This document shows, one piece after another, positions 18,301 through 39,230 of a stretch of DNA of 64,000 nt. The notes under the pieces are model-generated. The model was not told the DNA's origin, did no database searches, and saw nothing but the letters and a program-made list of their open reading frames with translations. The position numbers were made by a program, and so were the translations under genes. Numbering within the stretch: position 1 is the first letter of the stretch; the number at the start of each line of letters is the position of its first letter. The stretch is from Pecten maximus (Eukaryota): positions 7,440,001 through 7,504,000 of the forward strand of contig NC_047020.1 of assembly GCF_902652985.1 (NCBI RefSeq). Direction: 5' to 3'.

Positions 18301-21300
18301 CACCTAGACTGCATACTCTGGTTATCTCAATCCTTCATTCCAGGTCACCTGCCCTCCAGTCAGTTGGAAAACATGTTGCATCATTAATCACGTCTTTATG
18401 ACGCCGTTCTTAAATAACATTTGTGATAATAGGACAAAAAGCAATATCAAACAAAACTGAAATCTTCTACAAAGTTCATTGTTCAACAGGTACTGTTAAA
18501 AAGCATGTGTATTGTTTGACAGGTAATGTTAAAAAGCATGTGTATTGTTTGACAGGTAATGTAAATAGCATGTGTATCGTTTGACAGGTAATGTTAAAAA
18601 GGATGTGTATCGTTTGACAGGTAATGTTAAAAGCATGTGTATTGTTTGACAGGTAATGTAACTAGCATGTGTATTGTTTGACAGGTAATGTTAAAAAGTA
18701 TGTGTATTGTTTGACAGGTAATGTTAAAAAGTATGTGTATTGTTTGACAGGTAATGTTAAATAGCATGTGTATTGTTTGACAGGTAATGTAAATAGCGTG
18801 TGTATTGTTTGACAGGTAATGTTAAAAAGTATGTGTATTGTTTGACAGGTAATGTTAAAAAGCATGTGTATTGTTTGACAGTTTATACACAACACACCAA
18901 AACAGTATGAAAGTCAAAAATTTATTGAATGGAACCAATAACTTGTTCAGGCTCATATTAAATATTACCTAAAGGTTTTGGCATTCTTAGGGGCTGCTCA
19001 TTCTTACAACTAAATAACATCAACTAACAATATTACATAATAAATTTTTACTCGCTACTAAAAAGATACACCTAAACAATTAAGATACTAATTATACTAT
19101 AGGGGCATGCAACCCCCAAGCTAGAGCGATCATAGCTTAGCTAGCTATGACTAATAGAAAGGAGAGAAACCTAGCTTGAGCGACCTCAAGCCACAGAGTA
19201 AGCAGTTGGTAGCTAAAAAGCAGGCAGTTCTGCTAAGACTGTTTCAGATGGGGCGACCCCCGAGCTTGGGTGATCCCAAGCATATCATCTACATAAGAAA
19301 TAAATACACAAAATATGATATAATGAATTGGGGGCAAGAAATTCCCCGAATTTAAAAGTGCTAATATCACGGCGTGATAAATTCATTACTGTGAGTGATA
19401 TCCTCTAACTATTCCGTACTAAGAAGAGCAGCCCAAAATAAAAATAAAAATGTGACAGCATGTAATAAAATAAAGCTTATAATTAACCAACACAGATGTA
19501 CAAAAAGGTGCTGCGAGCCGGCTGCCCCAACCTGAATCAGGGAGGTAGGTTTATCCAATGCTCAGACCAGCTTGCCAGGTGTTGTCTCACCATGAGGCCT
19601 TACTTACCCCTAAACAAATGAGCCCGAAACAAGTAAAAAAGACATGTAATAAATATAAATATTATAAGTAAACACATATAATAAAAACAACATATACACA
19701 TGAAAAGTACAGGCAATCAAAACAAAACAACAGTATATAAATATTAAAAGGTAATTATAATATAATATAAACAATTATACACAAACAACAGTAAAGAAAA
19801 CTGCAAATTATCAAAGGTGGAGGTGGGGCGGATGGTGGATGATGAATAAAACACTGCTGCTACAAATAATCACGCTGCTTGAAAATGAATGCAGGTGGCG
19901 CTATCCCCTGACGTATTTCCATTGGTCAAGAACATCACGTGATCAAAGGCGCGAGGTTAGAAATAGATATTTACTAACATGAAGACTGTGACGGGGTTTT
20001 TAAATGTTGTGTACAAACAACTATTTAGTAAACAAAATATCATGTAATGTTAAAAAGCATGTGTATTGTTTGACAGGTAATGTTAAGTATGTGTATTGTT
20101 TGACAGGTAATGTTAAAAACCATGTGTATTGTTTGACAGGTTATGTTAATAGCATGTGTATTGTTTGACAGGTAATGTAAATAGCATGTGTATTGTTTGA
20201 CAGGTAATATTAAAAAGTATGTGTATTGTTTGACTTCCATTACAGCTGGCATCTCCACCAATCCCTGGATGCACTTGGATACAGACACCTGTCCTCCTAC
20301 CATAGAAATTCCATACACATGAGCTTCGCCTCCCAGCTCGAGTCCCTTGGCCTCTGGGAGTGGGCGGTGTTCGCTGTACTTCACATTGAACAGCAAACAT
20401 AGTAAGTTATCACCCAGAATGATTTATAAGCCGAATCATGCTAGCTCCATGTGTTTAAGAACACAATTTAATCTGCGGAAAGGGAATTGGGCCTAATTGT
20501 CCAAAAATCAAATACAAAACTTTTTCTCTGTGTTCTCTGGTGAAATTATTTTAATGTCAGCTTTTGATCATTTGTTGATGTCAGACTAACAAGTCTAGTT
20601 TTTGTCATTTTAGTCGAGAGTCTGCTGTAAGGGAGCTGTTACTCAGACACGTCAGTCTCTCTAAAGACCATTTCTACCTGGAAAAGGAACAGTTCCTCAG
20701 AGAAAAACTTGATGTCCCAGCAGAGTGGATTCATTTTGCAAAGGTAAGGATGTTAAGTTGTTTATTGGATTGTAATTTTTAGTCCACCATCTTCAGATAG
20801 ACCAAATATAGACCATTCAATGGTGTGTGTTCAGATCCCTCTGGGATGTCTTGTTCATTGATGTTGGAAGATATTTCAGTACTTTTGTCACAGTTTGTCA
20901 GAGTTTTCTGGTCTTAGGAATTTGGCTAGGTACCGTTTCAGCTGCCTAATTCATCTATGTTTTCATTGGATAATGAAGTTAAGGAAACTTAATTTATCGT
21001 TATGTGAAAAATTAGGTTGCAGTATTCTTATCATTGGACTAAGCTTTCAACTTACTTTTTATAGGCAATGAGAGCAAGGTTTGAGAGTCGTCCCCATGAA
21101 GAGGCATGGCATTTGCTGAAGTCTGGACACTGGAATGACAGTCACCGCGTGGTACTGAATCACATAGCATCAGATGCTATCATCAGTGGTAGGTTTGGGT
21201 CACATCACATACATCACATACCCTGAGTGGTACTGAAACACATTGTATCAGATGCTATCATCAGTGGTAGGTTTGGGTCGTATCACATACATCACATACC

Positions 21301-24300: not shown

Positions 24301-27300
24301 CAGCTTAAAACTCTACTGTTTTAATGTGTATTAATATGTTGTACCAGTTCTCTACTAACATGTTGTACCAGTTCTCTACTAATTCACAATCATACAGAAT
24401 ATGATGGAATAGGTCTTGTGAGGAATAAAGAACAGAAAAAAGATGAAGTGGCATATTCAAAATACACATAGAATCCAAAAGAATAAAACTACATCAATAA
24501 ACAGTGAATTTGGTTCACTGATGAAACTGTCAAAAATACATAGGAACAAGACATACAAGTTCTTATAATAGACTGTTGTATAGATGGTAAGTCACAAATA
24601 CAGACAAAAACAATATATTGGACAGTGTTATAGTTGGTAAGTCACAAATATAGACAAAAACAATATATTGGACAGTGTTATAGTTGGTAAGTCACAAATA
24701 CAGACAAAAACAATATATTGGACAGTGTTCTAGTTGGTAGGTCATAAATATAGACAAAAACAATATTTTGGACAGTGTTATTTAAGGATTAACATCAATT
24801 ATGTTTTCTGTTATACAGTCATAACAGAAAAAACTGGAGTGTACTCTAAATAAACCGTGAAGCGGTTTATGAAGAGAGTACACTCCAGTTTTTTATGTTA
24901 TGACTGTATAACAGAAAAAATAATTAATGTTAATTCTTATAATTTAATTTCGTCTTATACACACCAAGATATTTCACTTTCTTTGGCGAACTCTTTTCTG
25001 TGATGAATTATTACGCAACGTCATCAGCCAATCAAAAATGACGTTACATTTCGCAACGTCAAAAATTTTGTTATGGAGGTATAACAAAATTATTTCAGCC
25101 AATGAAAATGCGTGTTTCATAAAAATTAAATTATAGTTGGTAAGTCACAAATACAGACAAAAACAATATATTGGACAGTGTTATAGTTGGTAAGTCATAA
25201 ATACAGACAAAAACAATGTATTGGACAGTGTTATAGTTGGTAAGTCACAAATACAGACAAAAACAATATATTGGACAGTGTTATAGTTGGTAAGTCACAA
25301 ATATAGACAAAAACAATATATTGGACAGTGTTATAGTTGGTAAGTCACAAATACAGACAAAAACAATATATTGGACAGTGTTCTAGTTGGTAGGTCATAA
25401 ATATAGACAAAAACAATATTTTGGACAGTGTTATTTAAGGATTAACATCAATTATGTTTTCTGTTATACAGTCATAACAGAAAAAACTGGAGTGTACTCT
25501 AAATAAACCGTGAAGCGGTTTATGAAGAGAGTACACTCCAGTTTTTTATGTTATGACTGTATAACAGAAAAAATAATTAATGTTAATTCTTATAATTTAA
25601 TTTCGTCTTATACACACCAAGATATTTCACTTTCTTTGGCGAACTCTTTTCTGTGATGAATTATTACGCAACGTCATCAGCCAATCAAAAATGACGTTAC
25701 ATTTCGCAACGTCAAAAATTTTGTTATGGAGGTATAACAAAATTATTTCAGCCAATGAAAATGCGTGTTTCATAAAAATTAAATTATAGTTGGTAAGTCA
25801 CAAATACAGACAAAAACAATATATTGGACAGTGTTATAGTTGGTAAGTCATAAATACAGACAAAAACAATGTATTGGACAGTGTTATAGTTGGTAAGTCA
25901 CAAATACAGACAAAAACAATATATTGGACAGTGGTATAGTTGGTAAGTCACAAATATAGACAAAAACAATATATTGGACAGTGTTATAGTTGGTAAGTCA
26001 CAAATACAGACAAAAACAATATATTGGACAGTGTTATAGTTGGTAAGTCACAAATACAGACAAAAACAATATATTGGACAGTGGTATAGTTGGTAAGTCA
26101 CAAATACAGACAAAAACAATATATTGGACTGTGGTATAGTTGGTAAGTCACAAATACAGACAAAAACAATATATTGGACAGTGTTATAGTTGGTAAGTCA
26201 CAAATACAGACAAAAACAATATATTGGACAGTGTTATAGTTGGTAAGTCACAAATATAGACAAAAACAATATATTGGACTGTGTTATAGTTGGAAAGTCA
26301 CAAATACAGACAAAAACAATATATTGGACAGTGTTATAGATGGTAAGTCACAAATACAGACAAAAACAATATATTGGACAGTGTTATAGTTGGTAAGTCA
26401 CAAATATAGACAAAAACAATATATTGGACAGTGTTATAGTTGGTAAGTCACAAATATAGACAAAAACAATATATTGGACTGTGTTATAGTTGGAAAGTCA
26501 CAAATACAGACAAAAACAATATATTGGACAGTGTTATAGATGGTAAGTCACAAATACAGACAAAAACAATATATTGGACAGTGTTATAGTTTGTAAGTCA
26601 CAAATACAGACAAAAACAATATATTGGACAGTGTTATAGTTGGTAAGTCATAAATACAGACAAAAACAATATATTGGGCAGTGTTATATTTGGTAAGTCA
26701 CAAATACAGACAAAAACAATATATTGGACAGTGTTATAGTTGGTAAGTCACAAATACAGACAAAAACAATATATTGGACTGTGGTATAGTTGGTAAGTCA
26801 CAAATACAGACAAAAACAATATATTGGACAGTGTTATAGTTGGTAAGTCACAAATATAGACAAAAACAATATATTGGACAGTGTTATAGTTGGTAAGTCA
26901 CAAATACAGACAAAAACAATATATTGGACAGTGTTCTAGTTGGTAGGTCATAAATATAGACAAAAACAATATTTTGGACAGTGTTATAGTTGGTAAGTCA
27001 CAAATACAGACAAAAACAATATATTGGACAGTGTTATAGTTGGAAAGTCACAAATATAGACAAAAACAATATATTGGACTGTGTTATAGTTGGAAAGTCA
27101 CAAATATAGACAAAAACAATATTTTGGACAGTGTTATAGTTGGAAAGTCACAAATACAGACAAAACAATATATTGGACAGTGTTAAAGTTGGTAAGTCAC
27201 AAATACAGACAAAAACAATATATTGGACAGTGTTATAATTGGTAAGTCATAAATACATAGAAGAATAACAATGTAAATAGACTGTTATATTATAATTGGT

Positions 27301-30300
27301 AAGTCATAAATACATTGAAGAATAACAATGTAAATACAGTGGAACTTTGTTAACTCAAACTCACAAAACTCGAATACCCCTCAAAAGTACTTTGTCATTC
27401 CCAACCCGATTTGCTCTTTATCCTTGTGAAAAAACTCGGAAAACTCGAATAACAATTTAAATAGAATGATAATTTGACATGTTAAATGTTAAATTACAGT
27501 TTGTATACAACAGTTATTTCCCTTTGTTCTGGAACGAACTCTTTTTATTAATATGGTTTAATTAAATATATATTTTTGTTGTTTATTTGTTATTAGATGT
27601 TTTTGCAAGTTCTAGACTTATTTATATAAGTGACTGTGATCTTCTATGAACATCTACATGCTTTTGTTATCATTTATGCAAATTTTACAGTACTATGTAT
27701 AGCTTATGCTAATGAGTACTTTAGGGGTTCCGACTGACCAATCAGGATTATCCCCTAGAGGGGGTCGCCAGTATTGACCATAGATTGAGGCAGTGTTTGA
27801 TGTAGGAGGTTGCTGTCATTTTTTCTATGCACTTTCTACGACTTTTCCAAGTGTTTTCACCGATCAAAAACTACCTCGAAGGTGCTTAACTTATAGCCTT
27901 ACGTACCTACAAACATGTGGACGAACTAAACAGTGATCATTTGTGTGTTGTTACAAGTGTTAAGAACTCCGGACATTTTCGTCTGCCGTTGTTTACGTGG
28001 AAAAGATTCGTTGTGTTTCTTCACGTGATGGATTATATGTAATACTCGGTCCATCGACCACTTTCTGTGCTGATCTTAGACACCATAACGTTTGATACGT
28101 TTAAGACTGTTAAATTAAAGGCCTGCGTTTCAGAGAATCGTATTCGGCGCCATGGGTTTTCGTCAACATGTGGTCGTGACCATGTGCCTTTGTTTGTAAA
28201 CGAACCCATTCAACCGTTTCGCCTGGTTTTAAATATGGGACCTAAACGCAGAAACAATCGTCCAACACCATATGATCCAGATTTATTGGAGAATTGGACA
28301 CTTTCCAGGTTACGGGAAGAGTTAAACAGACTAAATGAGCCCTTTCGTAGCAATGAGAAACGGATGGTGCTAGTAAAAAAGTTGAGGGACGCGAGGGCAT
28401 CGAGTGCGCGATCCCATAATGCACCGCGGCAAGATGGCGACCGCGGTAGTGTTGTGAATGTAAACAGCCAGCAAACTTCTAACACTGACAGCAATCACAC
28501 TAGAACTTTAATAGATTTAGTAAGCAGCTTAGCTGACAGCGTCACTAAACTGCAGGACAGTTACGTAAGGCTCGAAAGGCGAGTCTCTAACCGGACGAAT
28601 GATGACACCACAGCAGTGAATCAAACAACCGGACCCGAGCGTACTCTGACACGCAATGCCCCTGCAGCAGCTGCCGGGAGTGACGTACAAATAGCTACAG
28701 ACAATGTTAGAGGAACTCCAACAGAACCCACGTTCCTTGTGCCACCGACGGAGTATACACTAGAAACCGCCTATCGGAGTTTCAATCTCGCCAATACCGG
28801 TCAATCCCAAGGTGAGCAAATTTTGAAAAGAACTCGTTTTGGATTTGCGGCAGAATCGATGCCTTTAGTTGAGACTGTATCCCCGTCTTTGCGACAACAA
28901 ATTATTTCTGGTAAAGATGTTAACTTAGCAGCGCTGCTTATACCCTATTTCTGCGGCCAGAGTGATCCTGGTGCCCACACGTCCGAGAAACCAGACGTTA
29001 GACTAAATAGAACACTCACTCTCAGTGAATTTATTTTGGCTTTTGGGGTGTATAAGCATGTTATGTGTACTGCTCATCCCTCTAGGCATATCGAGTTAGA
29101 TCTCTACGAACGTGATATCGTCGATATGGGTACCCGTTATGCCTTTGGATTTTATGAGTACCATAAGCAATTTTCCTTACGTGCTGCTGCCCATTTACGC
29201 TTCAACAACACTCCCATAGACTGGTCCATTAGGGATAATACTCTCTTTTGTAACATTTTTGCGAATCAAAGACCAGTTACCTGTGAAGTTTGTTGTAGCA
29301 CTCTACATCAAACTAGTTTCTGCCCTACACCTACAGACCAGAGACCAGGACAATTCCAGAAAAATACTGGTACACAGAGAATCTCTACCAACAAAAGTTC
29401 TGCTACACTTGATTCCAAAGGAAGAAAGAAAGAATATCATGAAGGACGCGAAATTTGTAACAATTACAATGGATCAGACGGTTGTAGCAGGCCTGTGTGT
29501 TACTATCACCATGTGTGTTTGAACTGTAAGTCTGGTCACCCCAAGTTTGCGTGCCCTTTAGAGTTAACCAGGCCTCCTACTCGCAAGAAATAGCAGTATC
29601 ACACTCTTTAGTGATAACACCTATTGATATACCGGCTTTGACTTATGAACTTCGTAATCATCCGGATAGGTCGTTTGTTCAACTTTTGATAGATGGGCTC
29701 ACATATGGGTTTGATACCGGTTTTCAGACTTTACCGAATAGGTCTGTTATATGCAAAAATCTAAGATCAGCCTTAGATGACCCTGTTTGCGTTACCGATT
29801 TAGTACAAAAGGAATTAGACAAGGGATACCTTTTAGGGCCTTTTGACTCTATTCCTTTTACCAATTACCGTATTAACCCTATCGGATTGGCAGAGCACAA
29901 ATACTCAAAAAAGAAAAGGCTTATTGTTGACCTATCGGCTCCGCATGATGATTCCGACAACCCCAGTCTGAACAGCCTTATTGACAAGACAACATGCTCT
30001 TTACATTACGTTACTATCGATGATGCTATTCAGCTTATTAAATCACTGGGAAAAAATGCATGGTTAATGAAGACAGACATAACGGACGCTTTCAAGTTAT
30101 TACCTATCAAACCAGAACTGTGGCCTTATCATGGTATTCAGTGGAACAATAAGTTTTATTTCTTTACTAGACTAGTGTTCGGTAGTAGATCGAGCCCTAA
30201 GTTATTTGACAACCTATCTAGAGCAGTCTGCTGGATCGCAAGAAATAACTACAACTTATTGAACATTTTACATCTGTTGGATGATTTTCTAGTAATTGAA

Positions 30301-33300
30301 TCAGCTTCAGTGAATGCTACTGTTACCATGGAGAGACTCTTGTCGGTTTTTTCTAAATTACGCATTCCTCTAGGAGCTCACAAAACCGTGGGTCCCTGTA
30401 CTTCTTTGGAATACCTGGGGGTCATTTTGGATTCCGTTACCAGTGAAGTCCGATTACCATTGGAGAAGATAGCACGGATTTCAACTATAGTAGACTCTTT
30501 TAAGTGGAGGAAATCTTGTACCAAACGTGAACTCCTCAGTCTACTTGGTCATATGATTTTCGCTTGTCGGTGTATCAGACCGGGTCGCTCATTTGTTTCT
30601 CACTTGATTAAACTTTCTACAACAGTTGAGAAATTACATTATCATGTAAAACTCACCGACGATTGTCGCGCAGATCTCGATATGTGGTCTCACTTTTTGA
30701 GACAGTGGAATGGTGTTTCGTTCTTTTTAGATGACCACATAACCAATTCAGCTGACTTACATTTGTTCACTGATGCCACTCTCGACTCATTTGGAGGGAT
30801 TTATTTGAATCAGTGGTTTCAAGGATTTTTTCCTCAGAGCTTAAAAAATACTGACCCGTCTATGGCCCTTTTTGAACTATATCCGATTGTGATGGCGTGT
30901 GTTCTATGGGGACATCAGTGGTCTAAGAAACGTATTTTGTTCCACTGTGACAATTTAGCTACCGTTGAAATCATCTCGAAGGGACGTTCTAAAGTTAAGA
31001 GCATCATGGGGCTTATGCGTAAACTAACTTACCATTCTGCCATCAACAATTATGTCATCCATGCTATTCACATACCCGGGAAACTAAATAATGTTGCGGA
31101 TGCAATTTCTCGGTTCCAGATGCAGCGTTTCAGGCAGCTGGCACCCAAGGCCGATGCCTTTCCAATTCCCTGTCTCCAAATGTCTGCTTTAATGATGAAC
31201 TAAGCTCAGAGGTGGACAAGTTGTGGAACTGTGCTCTAAGTGAAAGAACTCTTGCCACTTACCGATCAGGTTTGAAGTGTTTTCAAACTTTCATTCTCTT
31301 ACAAGGCATCGCCTTTCCAGTGAATTCACTACCACCAGTGTCAGAAGATCTACTTATCCGTTTTGTCACTTATTGCCATACAGCCTTAAGCTTGAAATTT
31401 GACACTATAAAGCTGTACCTGGCTGGCGTGCGTTTTTTCTACATTCGTTATAATTTCGGAGATCCCCTAACTTACACTACAAGATTGTCATACATTTTAC
31501 GGGCAATTAAGAAAAATCGCGTAGGTGATACTTATAAACGTTTTCCTATCACTTGCGATGTGCTTACAAAATTGTGTTGGGTGCTATCTAGTACAAGTGG
31601 TGTGTTTGAGCCTTTTATTGACCAGATGCTCATATGTGTGTTCAAGACAGCCTTTTACGGCTTTCTACGATGTGGCGAGTTTACTTGTTCGAAACGCCAA
31701 GATCACAACTTTATTCGTTTCCGTGATATAAATGTGTTACCTGACAAGTCTTGTTTTCATCTGTGTTTACGCTCTTCGAAAACCGACCCATTCGGTAAAG
31801 GTGTGGTTATCAAAATCTTTGAGAATGGTTCGTTGGCTCCAGTATCCACGATGCAGAACTATTTACAAATGCGACTTTTGCAAGGTGCCAATCCAGATTC
31901 TCCTTTGTTTGTGGACAATGCACTTTCGTCCAAACCTCTTTTGCGCTGCACTTTTATCTCATACTTGAAAGATACTTTAACGCGGGTAGGGGTAGACAAC
32001 CGTGATTACAATGGTCATTCCTTTCGGATTGGTGCTGCCACCTCGGCTGCAGCAGCTGGTGTTGAAGACCATGTTATTCAAACTCTTGGAAGGTGGTCTT
32101 CCGATTGCTACGTACGATATATTCGCATCGACCCTTCGATCGTTGCTCTAGCTCAGATGAATATGACCATTACTAAGTAGGTTGTGTCTTATATTATAGA
32201 TGGCATGTTTATTATCCTAAGTACTGTATATAGGCATGTTTTCATGAGTTCATTCATTATATAATATGTTCAAATCAGTATTAATGATTTTATCTTAATT
32301 TATTGGGGGCTCTCACTCATAAGTAGTAGTGTATACATTTTACTTATTTCGCTCAATTTTGGCTTTTAATTCCAGGGGAATTTATACCCCCAATAAATCG
32401 TTAACATATACATTATATTTCTTCAAGAATACTTAGAGTCAAGAAGTTTCTCTGTCTCCTCGCACAGAGTCAAACTTTTTCTCTTTTATATTCTTTATAC
32501 GCAAACACTAGAGTCAAGTTGCTTCTCCACTCTTCTGGGGAGTCAAGCTTCTTCTCTATGCTTAGCCATCTCTTAAAAGCATAAAGTCAAGTTGCTTCTC
32601 TGAAGTTCGGCAGGGTCAAGCTTCTTCTTTATGTAGTTTTATACTTATAATTAGAGTCAAGTCGCTTCTCTGGAGTTTCGACAGGGTCAAGCCTCTTCTC
32701 TATGTTTTTTACTTAGGTTGGTAATAGTATGTTATGTATGTAGCTATGTTTTGAGTGAGTAGCCCCTGATTGCCAAATTTTATGTTTTCTGTAGTAATAA
32801 ACTGGTTAACTGTTGATTGCGTTTTTGTTGTATATAAAATGATAATTTGACATGTTAAATGTTAAATTACAGTTTGTATACAACAGTTATTTCCCTTTGT
32901 TCTGGAACGAACTCTTTTTATTAATATGGTTTAATTAAATATATATTTTTGTTGTTTATTTGTTATTAGATGTTTTTGCAAGTTCTAGACTTATTTATAT
33001 AAGTGACTGTGATCTTCTATGAACATCTACATGCTTTTGTTATCATTTATGCAAATTTTACAGTACTATGTATAGCTTATGCTAATGAGTACTTTAGGGG
33101 TTCCGACTGACCAATCAGGATTATCCCCTAGAGGGGGTCGCCAGTATTGACCATAGATTGAGGCAGTGTTTGATGTAGGAGGTTGCTGTCATTTTTTCTA
33201 TGCACCCACCCACCATCCCCTGCATCACCGCTTTTATTTCATTTTCTCTGCATTTTTATAATTTTTGCGATTACATCTTTCTGTCTTATGTATATCATGG

Positions 33301-34044
33301 TATGCATTACTTTCTATGTATTTTCTTTTGTATGGGCTACTCACTCTTTAGGTTTTTATGGTCTTGTCCAGGCTTTTAATTCCAGGGGAATTTATACCCC
33401 CAATAAATCGTTAACATATACATTATATTTCTTCAAGAATACTTAGAGTCAAGAAGTTTCTCTGTCTCCTCGCACAGAGTCAAACTTTTTCTCTTTTATA
33501 TTCTTTATACGCAAACACTAGAGTCAAGTTGCTTCTCCACTCTTCTGGGGAGTCAAGCTTCTTCTCTATGCTTAGCCATCTCTTAAAAGCATAAAGTCAA
33601 GTTGCTTCTCTGAAGTTCGGCAGGGTCAAGCTTCTTCTTTATGTAGTTTTATACTTATAATTAGAGTCAAGTCGCTTCTCTGGAGTTTCGACAGGGTCAA
33701 GCCTCTTCTCTATGTTTTTTACTTAGGTTGGTAATAGTATGTTATGTATGTAGCTATGTTTTGAGTGAGTAGCCCCTGATTGCCAAATTTTATGTTTTCT
33801 GTAGTAATAAACTGGTTAACTGTTGATTGCGTTTTTGTTGTATATAAACTGTGTTTTAATTGGTAAGTCATAAATACATAGACAAATAACAACGTAATTA
33901 AATAAGAGTTTTATATTAGATCAATTGATATATTGCAGGTTACTGGCTCCTCACATCAGTCGACTTCCCATGCCAGAGGATTACTGTCTTCAGGAACTAC
34001 GAGAACTCGTCAGGAGTCACATTATAGAGACAACAGTTACATGA
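251..34044 (+). CDS. NUP98: Nuclear pore complex protein Nup98-Nup96 precursor, 3' portion (autoproteolysis site plus Nup96), multi-exon gene span
   Basis: GT-AG exons join in phase except at one junction (near 17080). They give recognisable Nup98/96 motifs: VKHFTKYG, PASHRLA..MKASF, DAALFMGRSFRVGWGPNWTLAH, DWKRALALHLWY, FASQLESLGLWEWAVF, LLAPHISRLPMPEDY. The 5' part of the gene lies upstream of the window. Confidence 0.96.
835..1245. repeat. Degenerate ~75-bp tandem repeat
   Basis: Recurrent gcaaattttttctcaa.gagagtttatcgtgat.caaa.gagtgttatggacatttt. Confidence 0.7.
1281..1893. mobile_element. hAT-like MITE
   Basis: 8-bp TSD GTACTGTG (1273-1280, 1894-1901); TAGTG...CACTA termini; subterminal (c/a)tcgat motifs at both ends. 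Confidence 0.8.
2690..3395. repeat. 65/67-bp minisatellite
   Basis: Unit gattttagtattggtataacagaaacaagaagtaaaaacacagtatacca(gta/ttact)gtacttacacat. Confidence 0.95.
3527..5482. repeat. 43/41-bp minisatellite with 635-bp higher-order period
   Basis: Unit gatatctagtaaagatgattgataatgaaacagtaaacacatg; variant pattern recurs at 3768, 4403, 5038. Confidence 0.95.
6661..6889 (+). CDS. NUP98: Nup96 exon (low-complexity linker KPGQQKPG...EEYIDDM)
   Basis: tttcag acceptor, open frame, phase 0 in and phase 1 out fits neighbours. Confidence 0.75.
6895..7659. repeat. 29/36-bp minisatellite filling a whole intron
   Basis: Unit atttacaaagctgatctctggtacattgt. Confidence 0.95.
7668..7802 (+). CDS. NUP98: Nup96 exon (DEDLDD...PASHRLAASMGVSAHSMQMMKASFFG), copy 1
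   Basis: tgtag acceptor, gtaaga donor, conserved Nup96 N-terminal motif, phase 1-1. Confidence 0.88.
8130..8273 (+). CDS. NUP98: Nup96 exon (DRDKAIEKR...FREQQ), copy 1
   Basis: tacag acceptor, gtaaga donor, 144 bp, phase 1-1, open frame. Confidence 0.8.
8523..8657 (+). CDS. NUP98: Duplicate of exon 7668-7802 (copy 2)
   Basis: Near-identical copy at +855 bp with intact splice sites. Confidence 0.65.
8989..9132 (+). CDS. NUP98: Duplicate of exon 8130-8273 (copy 2)
   Basis: Near-identical copy (one synonymous cac/cat change), intact splice sites. Confidence 0.65.
10569..10871 (+). CDS. NUP98: Nup96 exon (…DAALFMGRSFRVGWGPNWTLAHCG…)
   Basis: Highly conserved Nup96 motif; AG/GT boundaries, phase 1-1. 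Confidence 0.93.
11593..11732 (+). CDS. NUP98: Nup96 exon (EKDVVGFSLL...EDTTVV)
   Basis: ttacag acceptor, gttagt donor, phases compatible. Confidence 0.8.
12242..12386 (+). CDS. NUP98: Nup96 exon (HNHEELLMIQLDHS...CPHFVPSPGVDALHQYA)
   Basis: Nup96-like CP.fVP..Gv.alh.Y motif; AG acceptor, gtaagg donor. Confidence 0.88.
12797..12892 (+). CDS. NUP98: Nup96 exon (…VFDLCVSLWGRLP…)
   Basis: LC.aLWG motif; ttacag acceptor, gtaggt donor. Confidence 0.88.
13060..15895. repeat. 63-bp minisatellite containing the acceptor and first bases of exon 15887; interrupted by a HINE
   Basis: Unit agagtgacattgaaatgctgttgtAG|atgatatagtaacatgagtgatcgagctggttatctt. Confidence 0.92.
13332..15414 (+). mobile_element. 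Non-autonomous Helentron-like element (HINE/DINE-1/pearl type) with internal tandem array
   Basis: 5' subTIR ggtcatctga plus local inverted repeat; (ccgt/gcgcc) microsatellite; ~140/186-bp internal repeats (326-bp period); 3' subTIR tcagatgacc; terminal hairpin aggccc...gggcct; host 63-bp unit resumes after it. Confidence 0.85.
15887..16002 (+). CDS. NUP98: Nup96 exon (…DRREALSQWLMDT…)
   Basis: RRealS.WL motif; ttgtag acceptor, gtgagt donor. Confidence 0.88.
16367..16546 (+). CDS. NUP98: Nup96 exon (…LSGNQISEACSLAQSSSDHRLALTLAQ…)
   Basis: Conserved EAC.LAQ.sgDHRLAL motif; cttcag acceptor, gtgagt donor. Confidence 0.93.
16585..16821. mobile_element. Degenerate PIF/Harbinger-like MITE
   Basis: tta|ggcctgaaaaa...gtttctg at left, cagaaaca...ttttttt at right; right end decayed. 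Confidence 0.4.
17080..17217 (+). CDS. NUP98: Nup96 exon (GYLDPVRQKIYSLMAG...DWKRALALHLW); 5' boundary out of phase by 1 nt
   Basis: Conserved DWKR...HLW motif; acceptor ambiguous (AG ending 17079 or 17087). Confidence 0.85.
17514..17789 (+). CDS. NUP98: Nup96 exon (YLCPPSCPI...PLPPYLE...DTCYHLLKLYS...LDYRL)
   Basis: Conserved Nup96 domain motifs; tacag acceptor, gtaagc donor. Confidence 0.93.
17766..18312. repeat. ~41-43-bp minisatellite made of the exon 3' end plus 5' splice site
   Basis: Unit agtcacctggactacaggctcAG|GTAAGctcctctctatat. Confidence 0.93.
18483..20234. repeat. 32/33-bp minisatellite split by an insertion at 18882-20043
   Basis: Unit gtgtattgtttgacAG|GTaatgttaaaaagcat; ends just before the acceptor of exon 20246. 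Confidence 0.93.
18882..20043 (-). mobile_element. Solo A-spacer-B relic of a Ngaro-like YR retrotransposon (non-coding)
   Basis: Minus strand starts atgatattttg and ends ttgtgtataaa, like the full element (atgataatttg ... ttgtatataaa). Shares collinear motifs (gtttgta.acaaca, gaccaat, C-rich ccaccatcc, ttttaa.t.c.ggggaattt...ccccc, gag.agcccct...tgccaaa, aataaa). Precise insertion in the host repeat. Confidence 0.8.
20246..20401 (+). CDS. NUP98: Nup96 exon (SWHLHQSL...FASQLESLGLWEWAVFAVLHI)
   Basis: Conserved motif; ttacag acceptor, gtaagt donor. Confidence 0.93.
20614..20743 (+). CDS. NUP98: Nup96 exon (RESAVRELLLRH...VPAEWIHFAK)
   Basis: Conserved motif; tttag acceptor, gtaagg donor. Confidence 0.92.
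21065..21188 (+). CDS. NUP98: Nup96 exon (AMRAR...HWNDSHRVVLNHIASDAIIS)
   Basis: Conserved hW...H....hlASDAII motif; atag acceptor, gtaggt donor. Confidence 0.92.
21149..21665. repeat. 78/69-bp minisatellite (7 copies) made of the last 40 nt of the exon plus donor
   Basis: Unit gtggtactgaa.cac....tcagatgctatcatcagtG|GTAGGtttggg... Confidence 0.93.
22351..22508 (+). CDS. NUP98: Nup96 exon (ENHDYLRKFLAEL...DWSRGGHVFMDYI)
   Basis: Conserved motif; tttcag acceptor, gtaagt donor. Confidence 0.92.
22580..23119. mobile_element. PIF/Harbinger-like MITE
   Basis: ~30-bp imperfect TIR ggccata.aaa.t.aatt..ttggttct.agg; flanks tga/taa. Confidence 0.7.
23357..23451 (+). CDS. NUP98: Nup96 exon (QRSNVHLEGLHSDVMSLCSRV...KDR)
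   Basis: LE.Lh..v.SLCSR motif; ttgtag acceptor, gtatgg donor. Confidence 0.88.
23507..23566 (+). mobile_element. 5'-truncated retroposon tail (SINE/LINE 3' end)
   Basis: 12-bp TSD ttaaatatacac (23495-23506, 23567-23578); tail ggacgtaaaacccat(aaat)n. Confidence 0.7.
24197..24289 (+). CDS. NUP98: Nup96 exon (LCQSEMSKKCAYLLRT…)
   Basis: L.QSeMaK motif; ctcag acceptor, gtcagt donor. Confidence 0.88.
24782..25134. mobile_element. 353-bp non-coding insertion with long terminal hairpin, copy 1
   Basis: ~70-bp inverted arms around ccgtgaagcgg; second inverted pair tataatttaattt/aaattaaattata; ttat duplicated at ends. Confidence 0.75.
25435..25787. mobile_element. 353-bp hairpin insertion, copy 2
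   Basis: No difference from copy 1 seen by eye; offset 653 bp = 353 + 6 x 50. Confidence 0.75.
27337..27450. mobile_element. Possible Tc1/pogo-type MITE end fragment
   Basis: ta|cagtggaact...aactcgaa motifs; only one end seen. Confidence 0.35.
27466..27832 (+). repeat. Split direct repeat A1
   Basis: 367 bp, matches 32839-33205; contains CCAAT at 27738. Confidence 0.93.
28235..29593 (+). CDS. Gag-like ORF1 (N-terminal helix-extension-helix-like segment; C-terminal CCHC/CCCH zinc fingers)
   Basis: First ATG at 28235 in the open frame; CEVCCSTLHQTSFC and CNNYN...C...C...HHVCLNCKSGHPKFAC. Confidence 0.88.
   Translation: MGPKRRNNRPTPYDPDLLENWTLSRLREELNRLNEPFRSNEKRMVLVKKLRDARASSARSHNAPRQDGDRGSVVNVNSQQTSNTDSNHTRTLIDLVSSLADSVTKLQDSYVRLERRVSNRTNDDTTAVNQTTGPERTLTRNAPAAAAGSDVQIATDNVRGTPTEPTFLVPPTEYTLETAYRSFNLANTGQSQGEQILKRTRFGFAAESMPLVETVSPSLRQQIISGKDVNLAALLIPYFCGQSDPGAHTSEKPDVRLNRTLTLSEFILAFGVYKHVMCTAHPSRHIELDLYERDIVDMGTRYAFGFYEYHKQFSLRAAAHLRFNNTPIDWSIRDNTLFCNIFANQRPVTCEVCCSTLHQTSFCPTPTDQRPGQFQKNTGTQRISTNKSSATLDSKGRKKEYHEGREICNNYNGSDGCSRPVCYYHHVCLNCKSGHPKFACPLELTRPPTRKK
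29551..31203 (+). CDS. Reverse transcriptase + RNase H (DIRS/Ngaro type)
   Basis: RLIVDLS, KTDITDAF, FGSRSSP, HLLDDF, LEYLG; RNase H FTDA, ELYPI, HCDN, NVADAISR; overlaps gag in the -1 frame, no ATG at start. Confidence 0.95.
   Translation: MPFRVNQASYSQEIAVSHSLVITPIDIPALTYELRNHPDRSFVQLLIDGLTYGFDTGFQTLPNRSVICKNLRSALDDPVCVTDLVQKELDKGYLLGPFDSIPFTNYRINPIGLAEHKYSKKKRLIVDLSAPHDDSDNPSLNSLIDKTTCSLHYVTIDDAIQLIKSLGKNAWLMKTDITDAFKLLPIKPELWPYHGIQWNNKFYFFTRLVFGSRSSPKLFDNLSRAVCWIARNNYNLLNILHLLDDFLVIESASVNATVTMERLLSVFSKLRIPLGAHKTVGPCTSLEYLGVILDSVTSEVRLPLEKIARISTIVDSFKWRKSCTKRELLSLLGHMIFACRCIRPGRSFVSHLIKLSTTVEKLHYHVKLTDDCRADLDMWSHFLRQWNGVSFFLDDHITNSADLHLFTDATLDSFGGIYLNQWFQGFFPQSLKNTDPSMALFELYPIVMACVLWGHQWSKKRILFHCDNLATVEIISKGRSKVKSIMGLMRKLTYHSAINNYVIHAIHIPGKLNNVADAISRFQMQRFRQLAPKADAFPIPCLQMSALMMN
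31212..32180 (+). CDS. Tyrosine recombinase
   Basis: Catalytic residues GFLRCGE (R), SKTD (K), HSFR (H,R), GRW, YVRY (Y); frame is open from 31092. Confidence 0.95.
   Translation: MDKLWNCALSERTLATYRSGLKCFQTFILLQGIAFPVNSLPPVSEDLLIRFVTYCHTALSLKFDTIKLYLAGVRFFYIRYNFGDPLTYTTRLSYILRAIKKNRVGDTYKRFPITCDVLTKLCWVLSSTSGVFEPFIDQMLICVFKTAFYGFLRCGEFTCSKRQDHNFIRFRDINVLPDKSCFHLCLRSSKTDPFGKGVVIKIFENGSLAPVSTMQNYLQMRLLQGANPDSPLFVDNALSSKPLLRCTFISYLKDTLTRVGVDNRDYNGHSFRIGAATSAAAAGVEDHVIQTLGRWSSDCYVRYIRIDPSIVALAQMNMTITK
32361..32838 (+). repeat. Split direct repeat B1
   Basis: 478 bp, matches 33371-33848; directly abuts A2. Confidence 0.93.
32839..33205 (+). repeat. Split direct repeat A2
   Basis: Copy of A1. 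Confidence 0.93.
33371..33848 (+). repeat. Split direct repeat B2
   Basis: Copy of B1; AATAAA at 33806. Confidence 0.93.
33939..34044 (+). CDS. NUP98: Nup96 terminal exon (LLAPHISRLPMPEDYCLQELRELVRSHIIETTVT*)
   Basis: Conserved C-terminal motif; ttgcag acceptor; TGA 34042-34044; AATAAA near 34393. Confidence 0.93.
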
Positions 34045-35825
34045 TAGTGTCTATAGCTTTTTTTAAAAAAAAGGATTTTTTCAGACTTCGAAATAAGTGA
34101 CAATTATGTTTTTGGTGATTATGTATTGATGATCATCAGCTACTATTGTATTTCGTTTGGGAAATGAAACCTTAAACAGTATAATATGTGATGAAATATC
34201 TTGTGGAATTATATTCCTTTATACACATAATTGGACAGGATACTGAGGAAGTTAAAATTTTGGTAAACTGTGAACATTGTGTAAGACAGTGATAAAGTTG
34301 GTGTCATTATTGACTGATAACTGGTCATACTAACGTGGAAACTGGACTGGAAATATGATATGTACGGTCATTTAATTTGTGGTTATATGTTTAATAAATT
34401 AGGCCTAAAAAGCCTTTAAAATATACCTTATATAAAGGGTCATTCCAGGTTAGAGTACATGTATATTGAAGAAGAGATGAGAGACATTCCTAATTGATGG
34501 TTTATACGCAACAAATCTAGAGGACCCGAGTTTTAGCTACTATCCTGTAATATTGACATAGATTCCTAGATCATGTACTCATCTTTTATACTTAACACAC
34601 ATCAACCTTATCAGCCTGAACTACTACATTTATTTGGCTGTCTTGGGGGCTACTAGACTCCATCAACTCATCCTTGATTATGGATTAATAGTATCTCGAC
34701 TAGATTTAGCCTAAATTGATCTGTAGTCTTATGTTGGGAGGTTCCATAGTCCAGGTTGGGACCTTTGGTCCTAGAGCTCATGTTGGGATTGAAGATCCTT
34801 TATCCTCCGGTCTGGGAGCCTATGTTGGTTAGTATACGAATGGTCAGGTTTTGTATATTAGGCACTGACAGCTTGTTATATAGGTAATTGCGGGAAATAC
34901 ATTATGCTATTAAATTGTCGGCACTCAAAAGACTACTTTAAAAAATCGACTTCATGTTTGTAATTCAAGAAATATACCTTGTACATGCTGAAAAATATGG
35001 TACAGTGCTTTGTGCGGACCTCTTCAGTTACCAGCTCTAGGAAGCTAAACACAGATACAGAAACAATCTTTAGTATGCATGGACTCTCAAGGATATGTAA
35101 ACATTACACAAAGTCGTTACATCTAAATTAAAATGTTTCTTGGGATCAGAACAAACACACAGAATATTTCTTGTGAACACATATTCACTTTCAAAAACAT
35201 CACCTCTTACACCAGTATGAAATACATTTGAAAAGAAATTGTAATTTAACTTGATCCTTTATTGTTGATTTGATATCAGTTGAAAATGTGACTTTTCAAA
35301 ATGAGATTATGAGGAAATAACTTTGTAAAGACTTTCAAAATGCTGACCATTCTGGTATTGATCTGTATACTGTTTACTGGTACTGTGGTATTGTGGTGCC
35401 ACCTCGCACTCCAGTGCGGTTTGTACGAGTTTTTAATTTATATCACGATAGACATACTTGGAAGTTCCTTGTAGCCTACTTCTGTATTTCATCTACTCTA
35501 AAATGATTTCCTTCATGATAGTGTTTTCATTCATAGATCATTGCATATCATTTTATTGTCAAGTTTTTCCTGCGATAACTGGGAACTGGACACATTCTTT
35601 GTGTGTGTAACTATTGTGTATAACTGATGTATCTTATTGTCTGAAAATTAAAAAAGCTCACTTTATCAAAGTATTTCTGAGACTTGTTTGTTCAACTGGC
35701 TGTACCAAATCAGGTGTAGTGAAGTTCTCCACATCCATATTTATGCCTGTACTATTTTGGAACTGATAAAAATAACAAAATGGTTGACAGGAAGCCATCT
35801 TGAAATTTCACAGTTGAATTTTATT

Positions 35826-37136: not shown

Positions 37137-37829
37137 ATATAGTGTAGTATAGTATGGCACTGCTAAAACAAAGGTGGTGTTTGTTTTTGGGGAAAAAACA
37201 ATGACCGCCATTTTCTTTCCTCTGATTGGTCGAAATTTAAATATTGTCCGATTTTGATGAAATTTGGTATATATGTTCAAGGTGGACCACTTCACTTTTC
37301 AAACTTGGTTTCACATTCGTAAGAAAATTGCCACTGTTTAATGGCTTCTGATTGGTCAAAATTGACATATCTTTCAATTTCAATGAAAATTGGTTTAAGG
37401 GTATTACGGGACTTTGAATTCAACCGAATGGGTTTCGTTGCCACGGAGACCACAGTCATTCGCGTCTTCGAGAATATGGAAGGTGTTTGGGGGACTTCTG
37501 TAATGGTTTTCCATTACTATAAGTCCTTGTCGTATACCTTATGTAAATGCAATGGGATTTCAATTAAACTTACCAGCAATAATCCCTATACATTGTAGAT
37601 GTTGGTAATCAATAACACCTGAAAGAATTTGCCTCTTTGTTTCTTAAAGCTAAATTGACCCCAACCCTGTGTTACAAGACTACAATTAATTTCATTATTA
37701 CGACAGTTCTAGTTTGTGTATATTTCTACTAATGTATACATTTTATAACTAAACACAGTACTACCCATTGCCTTTTAAGTTTTATCTAAATATGTTTAAA
37801 TATGATACCAATATCATTTTATACAAAAA

Positions 37830-39230
37830 TACAGATATTTCTGTTTTAAATGCATATACAGATCTCTCTATCTCATACATAAATGAAGATATCTATTTGA
37901 TACATAAATACAGATATCTCTATATTACATGAATACAGATCTCTCTATTTTAAACATGAATACAGATTTCTATTTTACATAAATACAGATCTCTCCATTT
38001 TAAACATAAATACAGATCTCTATATTACATAAATACAGATCTCTCTATATTACATGAATACAGATCTCTCTATATTACATAAATACAGATTTCTATTTTA
38101 CATGAATACAGATCTCTCTATTTTAAACATAAATACAGATCTCTCCATTTTAAACATAAATACAGATTTCTATTTTACATGAATACAGATCTCTCTATTT
38201 TAAACATGAATACAGATTTCTATTTTACATGAATACAGATCTCTCTATTTTACATGAATACAGATTTCTATTTTACATAAATACAGATCTCTCCATTTTA
38301 AACATAAATACAGATCTCTCTATATTACATAAATACAGATCTCTCTATATTACATGAATACAGATCTCTCTATTTTAAACATAAATACAGATTTCTATTT
38401 TACATGAATACAGATCTCTCTATTTTAAACATAAATACAGATTTCTATTTTACATGAATACAGATATCTCCATTTTAAACATAAATACAGATTTCTATTT
38501 TACATAAATACAGATCTCTCCATTTTAAACATAAATACAGATTTCTATTTTACATGAATACAGATCTCTCTATTTTAAACATAAATACAGATCTCTCTAT
38601 TTTAAACATGAATACAGATCTCTCTATTTTAAACATAAATACAGATCTCTCTATATTACATAAATACAGATTTCTCTATTTTAAACATGAATACAGATTT
38701 CTATTTTACATGAATACAGATCTCTCTATTTTAAACATAAATACAGATCTCTCCATTTTAAACATAAATACAGATCTCTCTATTTTGAACATGAATACAG
38801 ATCTCTCTATTTTAAACATAAATACAGATCTCTCTATATTACATAAATACAGATCTCTCTATTTTAAACATAAATACAGATTTCTATTTTACATGAATAC
38901 AGATCTCTCTATTTTAAACATAAATACAGATCTCTCTATTTTAAACATAAATACAGATTTCTATTTTACATGAATACAGATCTCTCTATTTTAAACATAA
39001 ATACAGATTTCTATTTTACATGAATACAGATCTCTCTATTTTAAACATAAATACAGATCTATCTATTTTTAACATGAATACAGATCTCTCTATTTTAAAC
39101 ATGAATACAGATCTCTCTATCTCATACATAAATGAAGATATATCTTATACATCAATACAACTATCTTTATTTCATACATGAATACAGATATCTGTAATTA
39201 AATGTCAGATATCTCCAATTCAAATACAGA
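37830..39230. repeat. 23-27-bp satellite array
   Basis: Units aaatacagatctctctattttaaacat / gaatacagatttctattttacat. Confidence 0.93.

Follow-up and report, generated by a model that had tools for sequence, protein, structure and literature searches.

Among retrotransposons of the order DIRS, linear cDNA intermediates exist, and the primer is described as not known (PMC7192593). In DIRS-1 from Dictyostelium, according to the same account, the internal complementarity provided by the ICR is needed for replication, the cDNA is linear and single-stranded and the primer is likewise unknown (PMC7192593). In the LTR retrotransposon Tf1 from Schizosaccharomyces pombe, the element's own RNA pairs with the primer site and an RNase H cut is needed (PMC7175516); cDNA termini bearing primer sequence have been described as able to integrate by host repair (PMC11042837). 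The element reported here most resembles the Ngaro superfamily (order DIRS), whose repeats, in the passages considered, are laid out alike; solo AB copies, three ORFs that overlap and the lack of a methyltransferase match are shared as well (PMC4157794, PMC8547959, PMC9210276).

Layout of the Ngaro element in the window

The window, a stretch of 64,000 nucleotides from Pecten maximus, contains an intact Ngaro retrotransposon with the order A1-gag-RT/RH-YR-B1-A2-spacer-B2, all of its features lying on the plus strand. Split direct repeats are found downstream of the tyrosine recombinase (YR), in the order A1-ORFs-B1-A2-B2, and the gag-like, RT/RNase H and YR reading frames share one strand, the gag and RNase H labels being based on position. 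The A1 repeat (27466..27832, its start position having been read off the sequence) is 99.5% identical to A2 (32839..33205), and B1 (32361..32838) is 99.8% identical to B2 (33371..33848), which terminates at the recombinase crossover motif TATAAA. ORF1 (28043..29593, 516 aa from stop to stop) is considered gag-like from its position and a C-terminal Cys/His motif, a Pfam search having given no family above the cut-off. ORF2 (29530..31203) encodes a reverse transcriptase (RVT_1, E 2.9e-12), followed by 267 C-terminal aa without a Pfam match at E<=0.5; no methyltransferase match was obtained, and the absence of this domain sets the element apart from PAT/DIRS. ORF3 (31092..32180) encodes the YR (Phage_integrase, E 9e-6, slightly below the curated cut-off), with 151 matches in the genome; among viral contigs a YR search gave one weak match.

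Downstream of the ORFs, the B1 leader (32298..32319) comprises a T-rich flank, a G-run (32305-32309) and an imperfect 5' arm. A TTTTGGC strand (32357..32363) spans the B1 5' boundary at 32361 and can pair with the GCCAAA that follows the B1 3' arm and a linker (32752..32777 in all), and an inner C-run (32387..32398) offers the leader G-run an alternative partner, forming 12 bp with 32298-32309. B1 also carries a family-specific array of small hairpin repeats (32429..32715; B2 copy 33439-33725) and an AATAAA (32796..32801; B2 copy 33806-33811), a candidate poly(A) signal which 16 of 22 elements carry 43-63 nt upstream of their B end. The unique spacer, or B2 leader (33206..33370), starts with a C-rich tract (33206-33222) for which a duplex scan of 16 elements has detected no consistent partner, and holds the B2 leader arm (33334..33346); its counterpart is the B2 3' arm (33763-33776), with linker and GCCAAA (33782-33787) completing the segment 33763..33787. 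Sequencing data were available as contigs only, from four of 24 listed runs, with an RNA origin guessed for three of them. One 1040-nt contig runs from the B1 end to B2, and contig depth is higher there than over the ORFs, a comparison which gives no starts, ends or levels. A contig that ends at 33784 was set aside, having no match in another study.

Helices linking each leader to the B repeat

Tyrosine-recombinase retrotransposons of the Ngaro type carry a real, conserved and co-varying fold-back in their tail, and what is conserved is the set of helices by which the leaders are joined with the B 3' end. In the window, the B2 leader arm is a perfect complement of the B2 3' arm, which bears out the exact 13-bp reverse complementarity of 33334-33346 and 33763-33775 claimed in an earlier note on this DNA. 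A perfect 13-bp inverted repeat was equalled in 6 of 2000 shuffles of spacer plus B2, and the helix is present in both the MFE and the centroid folds. The folding z is -4.6, but the minus strand folds similarly above shuffles (z -4.3), so these scores are uninformative on RNA sense. G-U pairs exceed A-C within the B2 helices (8 versus 2, a small count), a sequence bias that leans to the sense RNA. The pairing of 32306-32319 with 32752-32766 that had been proposed upstream of B1 also exists, with one bulged T. Both 5' arms sit in unique leaders outside the B repeat and each pairs with a 3' arm, while the imperfect B1 arm is accompanied by two extra pairings, G-run/inner C-run and TTTGG/GCCAAA. 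An Rfam search of window positions 27000-34200 and five loci returned 0 matches at E<=1.

On the minus strand (18882..20043) lies a solo copy with the order A-spacer-B, a member of a non-autonomous family of Ngaro type, with its 5' arm at 19434-19420 and its 3' arm at 19006-18990. The pair 18991-18999/19426-19434 had been reported here as the compensated equivalent in a diverged relic; the pair exists, with a double change from A-T to G-C, and so do the three hairpins it was said to enclose, but the copy is a solo of a young family, 99% identical to L157, with a 33-bp satellite as host site. As it reads from 20043 to 18882, 19434-19426 belongs to its 5' arm, and the pairing extends to ~15 bp with one bulge. 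An ORF-less 5.8-kb family with at least 40 near-identical copies retains both arms.

Of the 13 elements mapped, 11 have a near-perfect B2 helix (L075, with its spacer deleted, being excluded), with an ungapped helix of 9-16 bp that is equalled by at most 1 in 100 shuffles in 11 of the 13; L079 and L083 have weak B2 arms. Cognate B2 arms pair at -24.8 kcal/mol against -12.8 for non-cognate arms (p 1e-5), the cognate partner being the best in 11 of 13, and the B1 arms give -24.2 against -16.6 (p 1e-5) over 28 elements (18 from the own genome, 10 metagenome contigs), permutation values that overstate independence because the families are related. The B1 test excluded L082, L107, L172, L182, L187, L178, L192, L196, L203 and L226, where the 3' arm is absent from the stretch or the anchor doubtful; L068, L075, L205 and L177 were anchored by position, and the inner C-run or TTTGG picks are doubtful in L071, L083, L173, L180, L197 and L215. 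Co-variation of the arms extends over families with YR proteins that share 40-65% identity with that of the window, each of six or more distinct arm sequences having retained its own complement between unalignable flanks, and the 3'-arm motif has 296 genomic matches versus one in the control. The inner C-run is retained and co-varies with the B1 leader. No co-variation was detected for the TTTGG/GCCAAA helix (p 0.11), the bases of linker and loop lack conservation, and in a distant clade the B2 arm exceeds shuffles in only one of six elements. Systematic differences separate the B1 from the B2 leaders.

The suggestion of a ~450-nt structured 3' domain under selection is upheld as regards selection on structure, given the co-variation of the arms, which are kept twice in unique sequence. 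Its size is not conserved, with 140-690 nt between inner C-run and 3' arm within this genome. A GGGG...CCCC hairpin, also claimed to be conserved, can form in just 6 of 25 elements, and the inner hairpins vary from family to family.

Repeat boundary, truncated copies and junction scars

The helices coincide with replication landmarks that the earlier note had not mentioned, namely the repeat boundary and a truncation hot spot. B starts between -4 and +3 nt from the TGG of the TTTGG/GCCAAA helix in all 22 elements, against a background of 0.14 and in an interval picked after the data were seen, and the boundary falls exactly after the T in ten of them. Extension of this TGG rule to elements with ~33% YR identity is, jointly with the tRNA-free two-copy priming set out below, a conjecture we think somewhat less probable than its opposite.

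The hot spot is the G-run zone of the B1 leader. Among 22 mapped breakpoints of 5'-truncated copies, which had been selected by the 3' arm and not by the G-run, nine lie between -7 and +1 of the first G (hand count; binomial 6e-10 on 9/400 and 6e-5 on 9/100). In 17 of 41 Ngaro-type G-run matches foreign DNA is found at most 8 nt upstream, with none at 9-70 nt (by eye). Several truncated copies begin exactly at the first G, and the recombinase crossover is the precise end point of the truncated copies. Duplications of 6-14 bp in the flanks surround five of 16 G-run-start copies (control 3/240) and none of six copies starting at A, and the starts which they define scatter from -7 to +1. The spacer/B2 junction shows abutting 9-16 nt duplications of the B start in 4 of 24 rows, versus 0 of 24 at leader/B1, as well as deletion and hybrid forms. 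The reciprocal products which the reading set out below predicts, ending at spacer/B2, were absent from 48 family copies and so tell against it, and none of 42 family copies, nor any mapped YR-selected copy, ends just before the G-run; four candidate places for a reciprocal truncation were discarded, having no family homology.

Proposed role and comparison with known systems

That the fold-back marks a replication landmark of some kind is quite probable. From its sequence context, it is likely the start and position signal of reverse transcription in Ngaro-type elements, an RNA cis-element that would fix where DNA strands start and end, likely via self-priming at B2, with strand assignment a matter of inference. 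We give roughly even chances to the stem being one helix of a fold-back that sets both the reverse transcription start site and the DNA strand ends, and the exact assignment of priming sites and strands can be put forward only tentatively. At B2, the perfect 13-16-bp helix would fold back the 3' part of the RNA, which could then serve, in place of a tRNA, as primer of minus-strand DNA at the 5' edge of B2. B2 would remain uncopied, both progeny B copies would derive from B1, and the spacer/B2 junction would be rebuilt in every cycle. The U-rich flank and G-run of B1 may serve as the plus-strand start, so that the linear intermediate would have a free end there, and half-integrated intermediates, joined by the recombinase at the B end and by host repair at the G-run, would give rise to the truncated copies. 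A U-rich flank with four or five G would be an unusual plus-strand primer, which tells against this reading. The fullest form of the proposal, in which the element's own 3' region, folded by the leader helix onto the B edge, initiates without a tRNA, a second and switchable B1 fold sets the opposite end of the linear molecule, and this two-copy apparatus explains the split repeats, appears possible but a little doubtful.

An alternative with perhaps a quarter of the probability places minus-strand priming at the G-run of the B1 leader, with the B 3' arm and linker (self-priming) or a host tRNA-Pro as the primer; the TTTGG/GCCAAA helix would stall reverse transcriptase at the B1 edge and force a jump to B2, the perfect B2 arm acting as an inactivating lock. 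It accounts for truncated copies that begin at the G-run and for the pairing of arm plus linker ~5 nt upstream of it in several families, near the -7 limit, and it gains from the relative strength of the TTTGG/GCCAAA helix, since 11 of 13 elements have the stronger form at B1, whereas priming at B2 would suggest the opposite. Against it stand the lack, among the copies mapped, of any ending right before the G-run and the out-of-register spacer/B2 duplications, which are hard to obtain by a jump guided by ~480 nt of homology. In seven families the leader matches the terminal 9 nt of the genome's own tRNA-Pro with CCA added, and in one family 8 nt, tRNA-Pro being the only tRNA compared, but the match is absent from the four-G families, whose leaders co-vary with their own 3' arm, and a search for a bipartite site gave no consistent second site.

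Other readings are unlikely to differing degrees. HDV-like ribozymes of R2-type elements have a nested helix order with a G-rich first helix at the 5' junction, and the order found at B1 (first G-run/C-run, followed by TTTGG/GCCAAA, which encloses a hairpin and a variable domain), together with copies that begin exactly at the first G, recalls them. A self-cleaving or nuclease-cut B1 leader, yielding a sub-genomic RNA from the G-run and leaving the B2 fold inactive, is nevertheless improbable, given the empty Rfam result, the lack of conserved catalytic loop, joining or linker bases, duplication-defined starts that do not fall on one bond, and a cut that would sever the genomic RNA. Barely more credit is due to helices that govern RNA fate, through poly(A) read-through at B1 versus the B2 signal, Gag packaging or 3'-end stability: AATAAA in both B copies makes read-through of B1 a necessity, there are systematic differences between the leaders and ORF-less copies keep their arms, but the AATAAA is not covered by the helices, and the TGG boundary, the hot spot and the junction scars are left unexplained. 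Chance matches, or neutral remnants of an older and longer repeat, are very improbable. Taken alone, the 9-bp match in the solo copy stands at chance level (462/1000 shuffles), the window holds ten other 13-bp inverted repeats at the same spacing and the distant-clade arms are weak; the diverse arms that each keep their complement and the genomic excess of the 3'-arm motif oppose this view, and the cognate versus non-cognate tests contradict it.

If the fold-back does act in replication, the finding narrows the priming question in the order DIRS to two predicted positions, the B-edge TGG and the B1 leader G-run, both backed by co-variation and by natural broken copies. It also supplies an annotation rule for Ngaro ends and reveals a class of putatively half-integrated copies whose flank duplications vary, which one would not expect from an element that uses a recombinase.

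In retroviruses, the primer-binding site and the U-tract/polypurine tract set the repeat edges, with TGG at the edge and a U-rich stretch before a G-run. The Ngaro landmarks differ in having no 18-nt match to tRNA-Pro and a purine run of only 4-5 nt, and both lie 3' of the ORFs. As in Tf1, RNA complementary to a site at the repeat edge is present, with GCCAAA/TTTGG at the B edge and the arms alongside; the Tf1 primer, however, is the first 11 nt of the transcript's 5' end, next to the 5' LTR, whereas the Ngaro candidate primer lies in a split repeat, within B near the 3' end. The Ngaro passages considered (PMC4157794, PMC8547959, PMC9210276) treat the repeats and contain no leader-to-B helices, TGG rule or truncation hot spot, and a literature search by title and start of abstract, covering the older Ngaro literature incompletely, found no description of such a structure; the TGG boundary rule and the B1 G-run truncation hot spot are new here. 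In DIRS-1, whose terminal repeats are inverted, the ICR complements both termini of the element and serves to restore the circle junction. The Ngaro repeats are direct, their helices connect internal leaders with a site within B that lies ~70-90 nt from its end, and the role of the ICR falls to the B1-A2 junction.

The stem and the element that holds it

An intact tyrosine-recombinase retrotransposon carries the stem at its 3' end. The element is composed of an A1 repeat (27466-27832), ORF1 (28043-29593), an RT ORF (29530-31203), a YR ORF (31092-32180), a B1 repeat (32361-32838), an A2 repeat (32839-33205), a unique spacer (33206-33370) and a B2 repeat (33371-33848). Such a split-repeat layout without a methyltransferase defines Ngaro in the relevant passages of three sources (PMC4157794, PMC8547959, PMC9210276). 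No methyltransferase match was found in the element, which, judged by its layout and this result, is an ordinary Ngaro member. Immediately after A2, nearly all families, whether close or distant, have a C-rich tract (33206-33222 and equivalent sites), with no consistent pairing partner among the families scanned.

The sequence matches reported in the earlier note have all been confirmed, including the B2 stem between the 5' arm in the leader (33334-33346) and the 3' arm inside B2 (33763-33775). This stem appears in the predicted fold, and a perfect 13-bp repeat was obtained in 6 of 2000 shuffles of spacer plus B2. Neither the B1 nor the B2 5' arm is part of the repeat; both lie in unique leaders, which means that a sequence complementary to the 3' arm has been kept twice. 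The pair at 18991-18999/19426-19434, previously attributed to a diverged relic, belongs instead to a solo A-spacer-B copy on the minus strand. That copy comes from an ORF-less family 5.8 kb long, which has split repeats and at least 40 near-identical members and to which it is 99% identical; the copy's 9-bp match, taken alone, is not significant against shuffles. The young element of this family, found at L157:3874-9807 (host genome G000, contig C19) and in no fewer than 40 places like it, has Ngaro split repeats, an interior of small hairpin repeat arrays the same as those in the window's B repeat, and a B repeat resembling that of a different family, not the window's.

The window is rich in minisatellite arrays with units of 25-326 bp, at 2600-9900, 13000-15900, 18445-20250, 24400-27300, 37800-39100, 47800-49200, 51850-54300 and 55700-56700, and both Ngaro copies sit inside such arrays. 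An open frame of 152 aa on the plus strand (10565-11023), with no Pfam match, is possibly an exon.

Conservation of the pairing among families

The comparison drew on 60 of about 150 YR places in the genome, picked to span the identity range, with 15 added later, as well as 80 metagenome loci. An ungapped 9-16-bp helix, matched by at most 1 in 100 shuffles, occurs in the B2 leader of 11 of 13 mapped elements. Cognate arms pair more strongly than non-cognate arms at both leaders (means of -24.8 vs -12.8 kcal/mol for B2; -24.2 vs -16.6 for B1 in 28 elements, where a bulge is usual), with p-values that count related families as independent. Each of at least six distinct arm sequences retains its own complement. 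The pairing exists in other families, and the fold-back is real and under selection. Among six distant elements (YR 32-38%), the B2 arm exceeds shuffles in one and the B1 arm in three, which counts against generality. The proposed enclosed domain of ~450 nt ranges from 140 to 690 nt across elements of the host genome, and the GGGG/CCCC hairpin, described as conserved, is possible in only 6 of 25 elements. Conservation does not extend to the fold inside B.

An inner C-run competes as a second partner for the G-run of the B1 leader, and the flanks of this C-run co-vary with that of the leader (-16.6 vs -13.9; 27 elements). A conserved third helix joins TTTGG to a GCCAAA located 3-13 nt past the 3' arm; in 11 of 13 elements it is weaker at B2 than at B1, and no co-variation was detected (p 0.11). 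Within the B2 helices, G-U pairs outnumber A-C (8 vs 2), a weak hint of sense RNA.

Repeat edge and truncated copies

In all 22 elements in which B1 and B2 are both present, the six distant ones among them, B starts at -4 to +3 nt of the B1-leader TGG, a range chosen post hoc into which a random point falls 14% of the time; in 10 of them the start is exactly after the T. The spacer/B2 junction shows no conservation and is scarred. Abutting 9-16-nt duplications of the B start are present there in 4 of 24 rows and at B1 in none of 24. Other scars are a short deletion, a hybrid with the B1 leader tail, and a duplicate that is longer and diverged. No reciprocal products were detected at this junction in 48 family copies. 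Junction variants at L270, L133, L361, L369, L370 and L079 comprise an internal deletion that ends at the G-run, spacer/B2 hybrids, duplications and deletions, and a 26-nt stretch of B1 leader duplicated in the B2 leader.

Matches to the 3'-arm motif number 296 in the genome, compared with 1 in the control. From the first 100 listed, 70 stretches were taken (all of the top 30, then 40 of the remaining 70); most of those left out were either the second arm of a pair or a copy already included. Copies were required to have at least 90% identity to a mapped element and an internal 5' breakpoint, one per locus, with three copies starting at A and two tandem-array rows set aside. By hand count, 9 of 22 breakpoints fall at -7 to +1 of the first G (binomial 6e-10 against 9/400, 6e-5 against 9/100); these represent three families, and the remainder are scattered. 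A DNA search added a G-run-start copy in the window's own family (L033). A second set, picked on the G-run, took 70 places from a list of 100; of the other 30, 28 were passed over as known or likely full-length and two were left out. Foreign DNA, judged by eye, begins at most 8 nt upstream in 17 of the 41 Ngaro-type matches of this set and 9-70 nt upstream in none, the set including three copies whose normal upstream sequence is not known. Where locatable, the right end of G-run copies coincides with the TATAAA crossover, either that of B1 or that of B2, and lacks poly(A). Flank duplications of 6-14 bp occur in 5 of 16 G-run copies, against 3 of 240 controls and 0 of 6 normal copies, and reciprocal products before the G-run were absent from 42 family copies. 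An unrelated dispersed repeat family shares the 14-nt GGGGGCTCTCACTC motif, set in another context (L248-L250, L252, L254, L261, L266, L272, L273, L276, L277 and 17 loci of the G-run set), accounting for about 40% of pattern matches.

A large number of YR-bearing copies stop precisely where B1 ends and have no A2-spacer-B2 (L005, L009, L010, L011, L025, L026, L076, L108, L111, L112), and solo A-spacer-B copies are likewise common; both could derive from repeat recombination or one-unit intermediates. Tandem extra A-spacer-B units, giving three B copies, occur at L151-L153 (G000 C2 near 11.93 Mb) and L286. At L107, the B repeat is broken ~300-2300 nt past the YR stop by an unrelated insertion that contains a long reading frame and is, judged by eye, probably a DNA transposon.

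Proposed mechanism and known systems

Retroelement repeat edges are set by priming or strand transfer. The favoured reading is that the minus strand self-primes at the B2 edge with the perfect stem as anchor, which would account for B1/B2 identity from exactly GG onward and for the out-of-register spacer/B2 scars. The U-rich flank and G-run would then be the plus-strand start. The truncated copies may stem from a linear DNA intermediate whose free end lies at the G-run: the recombinase would join its B end, and host repair the other. The main rival places the minus-strand start at the G-run, with the B2 stem as a lock; in its favour are the TTTGG helix, which is stronger at B1, and the seven families with a 9-nt match to tRNA-Pro, but neither the four-G families nor the spacer/B2 scars favour it. 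A role in RNA self-cleavage is less likely, as is one in controlling poly(A) use or packaging.

About 30 tRNA-Pro genes are clustered on both strands at L121-L126 (G000 C3 18.92-18.97 Mb). A second tRNA-loop-like motif, in ~14 dispersed copies (G000 C14, C4, C15), is possibly a tRNA-derived repeat or another tRNA.

No Rfam match was obtained, and a literature search covering work other than the original Ngaro papers returned nothing on Ngaro RNA structure or priming. What is new here is the cis-structure with its two landmarks as a variant replication signal, through a mechanism that we infer. Passages in the sources consulted describe VIPER, where SIRE is a solo A2-B2 (PMC6681497), and DIRS-1, which requires its ICR and has mainly linear single-stranded cDNA and a primer that is not known (PMC7192593). 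It is also described that cDNA ends bearing the primer can integrate through host annealing (PMC11042837), and that in Tf1, once RNase H has cut, the 11 nt at the 5' end serve for self-priming (PMC7175516).
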